From positions 35,400-99,399 of the IMG/VR virus record IMGVR_UViG_2695420521_000002: DNA of 64,000 nt. The stretch is one strand, 5' to 3'. The notes under the pieces were generated by a model. It saw only the letters and a program-made list of their open reading frames with translations, did not search any database and had not been told where the DNA came from. The stretch comes from a virus. Lineage: Duplodnaviria > Heunggongvirae > Uroviricota > Caudoviricetes. This document shows, in pieces, positions 26,803-27,485 of the stretch. Position 1 is the stretch's first letter. Each line of letters starts with the position of its first letter. The position numbers were made by a program, and so were the translations under genes.

Positions 26803-27265
26803 ACTTGCCGGGTACGTCTCCGGCGAGGGCTTCCACCTCCGTATGCTTTTCGGCGCACCGCGCCCTGGCTGCAATTCGGTAACAGGGGATGCATAACCCT
26901 GGCTTCCAGCGTGATTAGCGCCTTCAGCATGACGGGATATACCCGTTACAAGAAATTCTCCCAGGATGCCATTAAGCAATGGCTGTTACGCTGAATGAAA
27001 AAGGACGTAACAGGTAAGGACGCTGACCAAAAGATGGCCCCTTCTCGCTCATCTGGTTAATCGAACCAGCGCCCTTGCCTGTTATGCCTCCCCGTTCCCT
27101 AATACACAGACGGGGACACTCTGCGGTCGATTTTTTGACGGGGGACGACTCATACCCCGTGGCGTCTGGCTTCTTAGGCCGCTACCATCATCAGATCATC
27201 GTTTGCATTTACTTTAATGGTCAGTTTCTAAACCGCCGCAAAGTCGCTAACCATGACGAAAACCC

Positions 27266-27294
27266 TGAAAAAAAACGCCCACCCGAAGATGGGC
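27266..27294 (-). terminator. intrinsic terminator on minus strand (hairpin plus run of 8 T)
   Basis: Minus strand GCCCATCTTCGGGTGGGC followed by TTTTTTTT; about 180 nt downstream of dmt stop and upstream of tRNA cluster. Confidence 0.6.
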
Positions 27295-27457
27295 AAACTG
27301 GAAGCTCGTAACGCACTTCGGAGTTGCCACTTAGGCGCATGGTCAACCTGGCAACTCGGTGGTTTGTCTGGGAGGACTAGGCCCAGCCATGCTTACCGCC
27401 GCGCCTGTCGCGGCTAACAGCTAAATCGCTCTATAAATCACGATTCATTGAGGCGAT

Positions 27458-27485
27458 ATTACACTAATAAATTTATTAGAGCAAT
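27458..27485. promoter_or_regulatory. overlapping C1 operator pair forming a perfect palindrome (Op72-like)
   Basis: AAATTTATTAGAGCAAT (27469-27485, 17/17) overlapping ATTACACTAATAAATTT (27458-27474); core CTAATAAATTTATTAG; overlaps dmt stop. Confidence 0.7.

Follow-up and report, generated by a model that had tools for sequence, protein, structure and literature searches.

The ban operon leader of a P1-like phage contains a pseudoknotted RNA element shared with the DicF locus and a tmRNA-like module without a tRNA-like domain

Introduction

Trans-translation is the main ribosome-rescue and protein-tagging pathway of bacteria, and its transfer-messenger RNA (tmRNA, SsrA) is an antibiotic target. 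The tag encoded by the tmRNA of Escherichia coli is ANDENYALAA, and two-piece tmRNAs also occur in nature. DicF, a small RNA (sRNA) of E. coli, regulates cell division, metabolism, and the virulence of enterohemorrhagic E. coli (EHEC). P1 is a textbook phage whose ban operon leader has been viewed as made up of a promoter, a "dicF-like" curiosity, and spacer. Here we analyze the ban operon leader of a P1-like phage contained in a stretch of 64,000 nucleotides (nt) of viral DNA (Caudoviricetes; IMG/VR record IMGVR_UViG_2695420521_000002, positions 35,400–99,399), hereafter referred to as the window. Two RNA modules of this leader are the main subject: element A, which is related to the stretch upstream of DicF, and module C, which resembles the message and pseudoknot part of tmRNA.

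An exhaustive survey published in 2014, covering 543 phage genomes, reported tmRNA sequences only in some mycobacteriophages and in Bacillus phage G, and no tmRNA sequence in phages of the enterobacterial or Aeromonas kind (PMC4131195). Mycobacteriophage DS6A possesses the tRNA-like domain only, and this fragment has been proposed to act against the tmRNA of the host, possibly through titration of SmpB (PMC4131195). DicF arises by early Rho-independent termination followed by trimming with RNase E, and transcripts that read through can be processed by way of RNase III (reviewed in PMC9438474). The literature on tag peptides, phage tmRNA-like RNAs, anti-tmRNA, and P1 dicF, searched with Lobocka et al. 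2004 and King et al. 2011 outside the search, contains no description of module C, which appears to be undescribed. Within the same bounds, no role for element A was found.

Overall organization of the ban operon leader

A BLAST search of phage genomes with positions 26803–27475 matches 20 records, all of them P1-like. Identity reaches 97.3% with SJ46, 94.5% with P1 (NC_005856), and 91.9% with P7, and the match to phage D6 is restricted to the tRNA-proximal part. Between dmt and trnA, the curated P1 record (NC_005856/AF234172) contains P1ban, P2ban, Obanab (formerly Op72), and a "dicF-like region", and no coding sequence (CDS). P1 and the window share the locus and the order dmt, Op72/Pban, leader, tRNA-Asn (trnA), and tRNA-Thr (trnT). 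On the strength of the P1 annotation at the homologous positions, we assign 26803–27475 as the non-coding 5′ leader of the C1-repressed ban operon, read from the minus strand. The leader itself and this general reading are already known from P1. The palindromic operator that had been noted beside the region agrees with Obanab (Op72)/P1ban of the P1 annotation, and the positions of the −35 and −10 boxes of Pban would place its start near 27449. The two tRNAs, which score 72–73 bits with Rfam, are the first operon genes past the leader.

The initial annotation, made from the sequence alone, described the region as one gap of about 660 bp that might hold the dmt terminator plus a structured leader or small RNA ahead of the ban operon. 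A structured non-coding ban leader is indeed present. The single gap needs to be divided, since the conserved element A and module C had been overlooked, and spacer specific to P1-like phages makes up only the final ~260 nt. From Pban onward, the leader is composed of element A, module B (which ends in a terminator), module C, and module D (the spacer). The Rfam scan proposed at that time gave zero matches above threshold in the leader and weak ones at permissive settings, because element A and module C are both absent from Rfam. We favor, with rather better than even confidence, a reading in which the leader is a chain of RNA modules transcribed from Pban, with A and B forming an sRNA/attenuator cassette and C interfering with trans-translation.

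Module C, a tmRNA-like RNA without a tRNA-like domain

The first lead to module C was a BLAST match of 27263–27154 in E. coli genomes, located in a lambdoid prophage between the Q antiterminator and holin genes. In the phage collection, BLAST recovers 333 records, including 102 phages of Salmonella, 99 of Klebsiella, and 87 of Escherichia; the remaining carriers are phages of Serratia, Shigella, Cronobacter, Enterobacter, Aeromonas, and Erwinia. The module occupies intergenic gaps in Vi01 (Ackermannviridae), PD205 (Schitoviridae), C1 (Deseoctovirus), SG01 (Drexlerviridae), a Jedunavirus, Aeromonas phage pIS4-A, and an Enterobacter phage, where it lies downstream of the Q gene. Lambdoid Q-to-holin leaders are also among the carriers, and same-strand tRNA genes follow the module in many carriers. 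Among the matches listed, module C is unannotated or at most a "hypothetical protein", and the P1 reference annotation has nothing over it. A profile search with nhmmer matches the window at 27263–27097 (E = 3.7e-39) and finds no further or diverged copies in the window or the collected loci. Four pattern matches were obtained in bacterial species-representative genomes, and module C is therefore essentially a phage and prophage element.

The tag frame of module C starts at the invariant UAAAU-GCA-AAC-GAU and ends with UAA or UAG. It is 10 codons long in all 49 distinct variants, whereas the other two frames give 4–9 codons. The frame has neither a start codon nor a Shine-Dalgarno sequence, and an in-frame UAG is read in the sequence eight codons upstream. 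All four alanine codons are used at position 10, and synonymous leucine codons at positions 5 and 7 (CTG/TTG at 7). The peptide is ANDDLMMVAA in the window, and the tags of other phages include ANDDVVLMAA, ANDDLMLMAA, ANDEQFLAVA, ANDDQFLAVA, ANDNTFLAVA, ANDTEFLAVA, and ANEEMYLAVA. These tags end in AA or VA, and ANDEQFLAVA, ANEEMYLAVA, and ANDDLMMVAA resemble the host tag ANDENYALAA.

In the structure count, 80.6% of positions are paired across 42 representatives, compared with 36–46% when the strands are slid. None of 500 shuffles reaches the observed value on four of five measures, and 413 of 500 reach it on further pair types. The stop codon is located in the loop of a small hairpin inside an outer helix (helices 4 and 5, which are 97% and 69% paired), and the outer helix has an A-U to G-C swap in half of the sequences. 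The tag is followed by two H-type pseudoknots formed by helices 6–9, which are 82–94% paired and contain compensatory changes in all four stems. In addition, a long enclosing helix (65% paired overall) surrounds the module in most contexts and is replaced in P1-like phages. The sequences outside this helix are not conserved between contexts.

Module C is thus laid out like the part of tmRNA that holds the message and the pseudoknots. It shares with tmRNA, including the permuted forms, a GCA-started 10-codon tag with a hydrophobic end and AA/VA, the stop codon in a hairpin loop, H-type pseudoknots after the tag, and, in most contexts, the enclosing helix. It differs in having no acceptor stem, T-arm, or CCA end, two instead of three downstream pseudoknots, and no established PK1. 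Its similarity to host ssrA covers only the first eight tag nucleotides, and its scores stay below the Rfam thresholds. Sub-threshold tmRNA matches were obtained in every lineage tested; they align on the tag-like frame only, and the best model is that of permuted tmRNA.

A search combining a T-arm regular expression with a complementary acceptor strand recovered only genuine downstream tRNAs and scattered T-arm-like hairpins. Such hairpins occur near some module C copies, have no consistent complementary acceptor strand, and are absent near the module in P1-like phages. A tRNA-like domain was rejected by these searches together with ARAGORN, and module C should therefore not be called tmRNA. 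Descent from host ssrA was rejected as well, the alignment being at shuffle level apart from GCAAACGA. Module C joins the partial tmRNA of DS6A and the full tmRNAs of Bxz1-type mycobacteriophages as a phage-borne relative of tmRNA. In contrast to the DS6A RNA, it is the converse fragment, namely message and pseudoknots without the tRNA-like domain, and it is carried by enterobacterial and Aeromonas phages.

The most conserved block of module C is GUUUUCG at its 5′ end, which is invariant in 42 of 42 representatives. An exact complement of nt 96–106 of E. coli ssrA (GACGAAAACUA) is formed by (U)AGUUUUCGUC; those ssrA nucleotides correspond to tag codons 3–6, which we take to lie in a single-stranded part of tmRNA. 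A complement of at least 10 nt to ssrA nt 96–106 is found in 33 of the 42 representatives, always arising from the invariant 5′ block, and shuffled modules reach a 10-nt complement with a probability of ~0.003. The phage's own tag differs from the host tag at exactly codons 3–6. In phages C1 and pIS4-A, predicted sigma-70 promoters (10 of 12 positions) end 6–11 nt before the block, which would put the block at the 5′ end of the primary transcript. The complementarity suggests an antisense action on host tmRNA.

STnc100 (Rfam RF02076) is a further RNA to be compared with module C. In other phages, STnc100-like modules share the flanking junctions CAGUGCUCUUUCC and GGUAAGAGCAUUG with module C and occur in arrays before tRNA or lysis genes, whereas their core sequence and fold are unlike those of module C. 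In the window, an STnc100-like sequence lies outside 26803–27475, at 25912–26031 on the minus strand (38.7 bits, sub-threshold); another is located just downstream of DicF in K-12 (34.4 bits, likewise sub-threshold). It represents a third non-coding module common to P1-like and lambdoid phages. More generally, mutually complementary junctions, CAGTGCTCTTTCC on the 5′ side and ACAGGTAAGAGCATTG on the 3′ side, flank different RNA modules in many phages. The modules between them are tmRNA-like, STnc100-like, or of the "TTCGTGGGTAACAACGGGCAT" type. They are arrayed ahead of tRNA or lysis genes, and T-arm-like hairpins (GGTAGAGGGTTCGAATCCCTACC) often stand between neighboring modules. These junction-flanked arrays look like a cassette system for phage non-coding RNAs.

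Element A and the DicF precursor

Element A is composed of three helices (H1–H3) and pseudoknot pairing. Two GC-rich stems pointed out in the initial annotation belong to it: GCCGCG...CGCGGC (27414–27398) is H1, and GTTGCCA...TGGCAAC lies inside H3 (27357–27321). A sensitive BLAST search of 5426 complete E. coli genomes matched 27413–27319 (~97 nt) at ~78% identity in 4269 of them, mainly on the chromosome. In K-12, the match is located between ydfC and dicB of the Qin prophage and stops 25 nt short of the Rfam DicF match. The "dicF-like region" of P1 therefore resembles the stretch upstream of DicF and not DicF. Judged by this homology, element A is the conserved 5′ part of the DicF precursor, which lies in the ydfC 3′ untranslated region (3′UTR). 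Pairwise alignment to the K-12 spacer reveals compensatory changes in two hairpins.

The structure was derived by hand and counted over 62 distinct variants collected from IMG/VR and phage records. In this set, 94.3% of the cells are paired, versus 38–49% with the 3′ partners slid. The first pseudoknot pairs AAG(U/C)AUGG with CCAU(A/G)CGC of the helix 3 loop; the second one is a loop-to-3′ pairing. Helix 3 and the first pseudoknot contain U-A/C-G swaps, and several pair types are found in helix 2 and the second pseudoknot. Independent covariation events are few, because the variants are closely related (86% column identity). A covariance model of element A (R1) scores 96 bits on the window.

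In lambdoid phages (mEp460, pPE4, Qin), element A belongs to the early-left operon, with the repressor gene preceding it and dicB/kil and the exonuclease gene following. A hairpin with a run of at least five T is found 31–80 nt past the element in 136 of 136 instances. What lies between the element and the T-run varies: it can be DicF, the P1-type hairpin, or any of at least three further bodies, and at least four different RNA bodies occur there. The P1-type leader has the two features of a DicF-type cassette, an element A homologous to the ydfC–dicF spacer and a terminator within ~80 nt. It shares with the DicF precursor of Qin (ydfABC-dicF-dicB) the succession of an element A and a short RNA closed by an intrinsic terminator within an operon. 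In contrast to the DicF locus, the RNA body after the element is unrelated to DicF in P1-like phages, and the element sits ~30 nt past the promoter instead of in the 3′UTR of a gene.

In lambdoid prophages, at least three kinds of short terminated RNA besides DicF are found after element A, for example ...UUUGGCGGUACCAGUUUGUACCCUUGCUUCCGGCUGGUACCGCUCUUUUU. Their arrangement points to sRNA bodies whose seeds can be exchanged while the upstream element stays constant. Element A is present beside DicF in ~80% of complete E. coli genomes, and may account for the production of DicF-type sRNAs or for transcription of the operon past their terminators.

Module B and the terminator

Module B contains a single-stranded segment of 26 nt followed by an intrinsic terminator, and occupies the position held by DicF after element A. 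The strong minus-strand terminator reported previously is confirmed: the stem GCCCAUC/GGUGGGC (27294–27277) carries a UUCG loop and is followed by G and eight U (27275–27268). With a 7-bp stem (27294–27288 paired with 27283–27277) and a hairpin energy of −13.7 kcal/mol, it has the features of a Rho-independent terminator. A simple scan of 2.5 kb found 3 terminator-like sites, compared with 3.1 expected in shuffled sequence. Because site counts do not exceed the shuffle expectation, the case for this terminator rests on its quality and conservation. It is the sole such minus-strand site (27294–27268) from the dmt stop codon to tRNA-Asn. As the first intrinsic terminator after dmt, it plausibly has a dual role and would also end dmt transcripts, which leaves the dmt-terminator part of the earlier proposal at the level of a plausible prediction. 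A Pban transcript ending here would be ~180 nt long (27449 to ~27268), in line with the earlier guess of 150–200 nt.

DicF itself was ruled out in the leader. The Rfam DicF model (RF00039, gathering score 48 bits) gives no match in the window even at E ≤ 10, while K-12 DicF scores 76.7 bits.

Module D and the conservation contrast

Module D extends to tRNA-Asn and is found only in the 20 P1-like records, at 88–93% identity. It was not found in phages outside the P1-like group and has no Rfam match of note. In most P1-like records, element A and module C are 98–100% identical (element A of P7 is at 85%), compared with 88–93% for module D. This contrast is consistent with selection on A and C.

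Proposed working of the leader

In the favored reading, Pban would transcribe element A first, which would adopt a compact fold of three helices and a pseudoknot. Some polymerases would stop at the terminator ~25 nt past element A and release the ~180-nt RNA composed of A and B, which may be processed further by analogy with DicF biogenesis. The remaining polymerases would read through. The A and B cassette would in this way apportion the Pban output, one share going to a small RNA and the other to the tRNA-tci-ban genes; transcripts of dmt would end at the same hairpin. The read-through RNA would carry module C with its tag frame, its stop codon in a hairpin loop, and its two H-type pseudoknots, and then the spacer of module D, tRNA-Asn, and tRNA-Thr. 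Module C cannot take alanine or enter the ribosome alone, because it has no acceptor stem or T-arm. Most likely, it would interfere with or redirect host trans-translation. In the favored route, the invariant 5′ block (AGUUUUCGUC) would pair antisense with tag codons 3–6 of host tmRNA; alternatively, module C may titrate factors that bind the message and pseudoknot region of tmRNA.

We propose only tentatively that module C represents an undescribed class of phage RNA targeting host ribosome rescue, either as an anti-tmRNA or as an alternative tag template, and that element A represents a second new class of structured RNA governing either the biogenesis of DicF-type sRNA cassettes or read-through at them. 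If module C is functional, a very common unannotated phage RNA would manipulate trans-translation. The module often shares transcription units with phage tRNA genes, and its proposed role would then tie tRNA clusters to the takeover or protection of translation. It would likewise be a natural inhibitor or re-programmer of tmRNA.

A number of points weigh against the favored reading. The anatomy and conservation of the modules were observed directly, whereas we infer transcription of the leader (from the P1 promoter annotation), termination efficiency, processing, and function. As to the A and B cassette, the putative 180-nt RNA has an unremarkable fold energy (z = −1.25). No seed is obvious in module B, and cleavage at its best RNase E-like site (AG/UUU) would leave the hairpin alone. 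The duplex energy of the P1-type RNA with the ftsZ leader (−80 to +45) is matched by 58% of shuffles, in a crude test that real DicF fails too. Moreover, phage D6 keeps the terminator, module C, and the tRNAs while dmt, Op72, and element A are absent, and element A is therefore not needed for whatever lies downstream.

Further points of this kind concern module C. ARAGORN finds no tmRNA or tRNA-like domain in 127 contexts of the module or in the window. The Rfam tmRNA models give 26.1 bits here and 27–33 bits in other phages, against a gathering score of 47 (tmRNA_permuted), and local alignment of the module to E. coli ssrA is no better than shuffles beyond GCAAACGA. Most module C sequences were gathered with a pattern that fixes GCAAACGAT, so part of the apparent A-N-D conservation comes from the collection itself; copies obtained by BLAST show the patterned start too and add GAA at codon 3. 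The anti-tag complementarity is short and was noticed post hoc. It could reflect internal pairing of the 5′ block (GUUUU with GAAAC), and the hosts sampled probably share the same tag codons.

Alternative readings of the modules

A competing reading, which is possible but has clearly less than an even chance, takes element A as a cis-acting processive antiterminator RNA similar to put of phage HK022, whose nascent fold would modify RNA polymerase to pass the terminators that follow. Pban or the early-left promoter of a prophage would then reach distal genes such as ban or dicB without an N-like protein. The fold of the element is indeed complex, conserved, and pseudoknotted, its place is always 31–80 nt before an intrinsic terminator inside an operon whose distal genes need expression, and no N-like gene is annotated between the repressor gene and the element in prophage contexts. 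Operator-constitutive bac mutants presumably express ban from Op72/Pban in otherwise repressed lysogens, which would imply read-through with host factors only. However, partial read-through of a terminator requires no special element, and D6 retains the terminator and the downstream genes despite missing element A, which argues that read-through does not depend on the element. The element also differs in architecture, with three helices and pseudoknots in ~100 nt, compared with two stems in ~70 nt for put (PMC9378689). We located putL and putR by hand in HK022 from residues quoted in the cryo-electron microscopy paper (PMC9378689). A search of HK022 with model R1 returned no match, and switching the filters off produced only scores expected by chance over the immunity region and the put sites. 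Membership of element A in the put family was rejected on these grounds, as no sequence or structure relation to putL/putR was found. What they have in common is that both are folded nascent RNAs located after an early promoter and before terminators, in phages without an obvious N. This is a functional analogy only.

The trans-translation role assigned to module C in the favored reading has an alternative of its own, which we regard as unlikely. Here module C would be a working template of trans-translation, a coding piece joined by a separate tRNA-like piece from the phage or by host tmRNA/SmpB, and the phage tag would replace the degradation tag. The constraints on the tag are translation-like (fixed length, synonymous changes, and a hydrophobic AA/VA end), and the tag, the stop codon in a hairpin loop, and the downstream pseudoknots follow the tmRNA layout, with permuted tmRNA as the best Rfam model. 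Ahead of the resume codon, U at −5 and A at −4 correspond to what we take to be U85 and A86 of E. coli tmRNA. In addition, module C has the same orientation as tRNA genes and often has T-arm-like hairpins in its vicinity. Against this, an acceptor piece was not found, the flanks of the module vary by context, ARAGORN identifies no tmRNA, and the neighboring tRNA-like hairpins have no G3:U70 acceptor. We know of no way for a message domain to be loaded unless a tRNA-like domain is attached to it, covalently or through a helix.

Slightly less likely again is an ordinary leader or spacer in which A and C are inert hitch-hikers, a decayed DicF locus and an old phage tmRNA spread by recombination. 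The mosaic make-up of the leader, with pieces common to lambdoid phages, would fit such an origin, module C lacks the domain that canonical tmRNA function requires, and the repeated junction sequences could be mere recombination hot spots. However, compensatory changes preserve base pairs in both A and C, tag length is invariant over 49 variants, and the two modules are 98–100% conserved beside a spacer at 88–93%. Moreover, module C has its own predicted promoter in several phage families and is carried by strictly lytic phages with compact genomes.

Finally, a small protein encoded by the 78-aa plus-strand ORF (open reading frame) at 27075–27311, or by the hypothetical-protein ORFs that automatic annotation of SJ46 and JL22 puts across the region, is highly improbable, and protein-coding readings of the leader were rejected: the curated P1 record has no CDS here, the leader ORFs have no match in PHROGs or Pfam, their length varies among relatives of 92–97% identity (78 aa here, 82 aa in P1, 105 aa in SJ46), one annotated ORF traverses the tRNA genes, and the homologues in other phages contain frame-breaking indels that are not multiples of three. 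This agrees with the earlier statement that the region holds no credible ORF, since 26803–27475 contains only short overlapping ORFs of 25–78 aa plus a 139-aa ORF traversing the tRNA genes.

Table 1 Features of the ban operon leader and adjoining sequences, in window coordinates
Feature	Positions	Strand	Basis
Pban overlapping bivalent C1 operator Op72/Obanab	27456–27485	minus	Sequence reading, P1 annotation
Pban −35 box, TTGCTC	27484–27479	minus	Sequence reading
dmt stop codon TAA, within Pban/operator	27478–27476		Sequence reading
Pban −10 box, TAATAT	27461–27456	minus	Sequence reading
Element A, ~100-nt pseudoknotted RNA	27418–27317	minus	BLAST homology, structure count
Element A, H1	27414–27409 with 27403–27398	minus	
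Element A, H2	27386–27382 with 27372–27368	minus	
Element A, H3	27357–27349 with 27329–27321	minus	
Element A, pseudoknot (GCAUGG with CCAUGC in H3 loop)	27392–27387 (GCAUGG)	minus	
Module B, 26-nt single-stranded segment, then intrinsic terminator	27320–27266	minus	Fold, terminator scan
Module C, tmRNA-like RNA without tRNA-like domain	27264–27066	minus	BLAST, alignments, structure count
Module C, 5′ block GGUUUUCGUC	27264–27255	minus	
Module C, tag frame ANDDLMMVAA	GCA (27206–27204) to TAA (27176–27174)	minus	
Module C, helix-5-like hairpin	Around stop codon	minus	
Module C, pseudoknot a	27160–27138 and 27129–27126	minus	
Module C, pseudoknot b	27123–27107 and 27094–27089	minus	
Module C, 3′ closing strand	27083–27066	minus	
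Module D, P1-like-specific spacer up to tRNA-Asn	27065–26803	minus	BLAST
Module D, starting hairpin CUGGUUCGAUUAACCAG	27069–27053	minus	
Module D, junction-like CAGCGUCCUUACC	27025–27013	minus	
tRNA-Asn(GTT)	26802–26727	minus	ARAGORN; P1 trnA
tRNA-Thr(TGT)	26724–26649	minus	ARAGORN; P1 trnT

Flanking genes and other non-coding elements

Downstream of tRNA-Thr, the window phage differs from P1, having a tRNA-Ser and an SPFH-type ORF where P1 has plp/upl/tciABC. The difference includes the minus-strand segment 24731–25878 between the tRNAs and ban, where P1 has plp/upl/tciABC and trnI. This segment contains a tRNA with anticodon CAT (24731–24806), a 275-aa ORF (24834–25661) that reads like an SPFH/band-7 lipoprotein, and a 78-aa membrane-like ORF (25642–25878), all on the minus strand. 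At 26141–26227 on the same strand, ARAGORN assigns a tRNA-Ser with anticodon UGA, for which the best Rfam match is tRNA-Sec-like (43.5 bits against a gathering score of 47). This odd tRNA-Ser is also flagged in the D6 record and is absent from P1. Between tRNA-Ser and tRNA-Thr, positions 26330–26420 form a long inverted repeat, caatgttgagaacactgg with ccagtgttctcaacgttg, which gives weak microRNA-like Rfam matches.

In D6, the place of dmt, Op72, and element A is taken by ~700 bp of unrelated non-coding DNA (locus piece 1990–2740, minus strand), which has its own hairpin and T-run, GAAGCCGACT...AGTCGGCTTCTTTCTT. Elsewhere in the window, at 47693–47899 on the minus strand, two components of the P1 immI region are present and intact: the C4 antisense RNA (69.6 bits) and the a1/b1 sites that it targets (55.5 bits).

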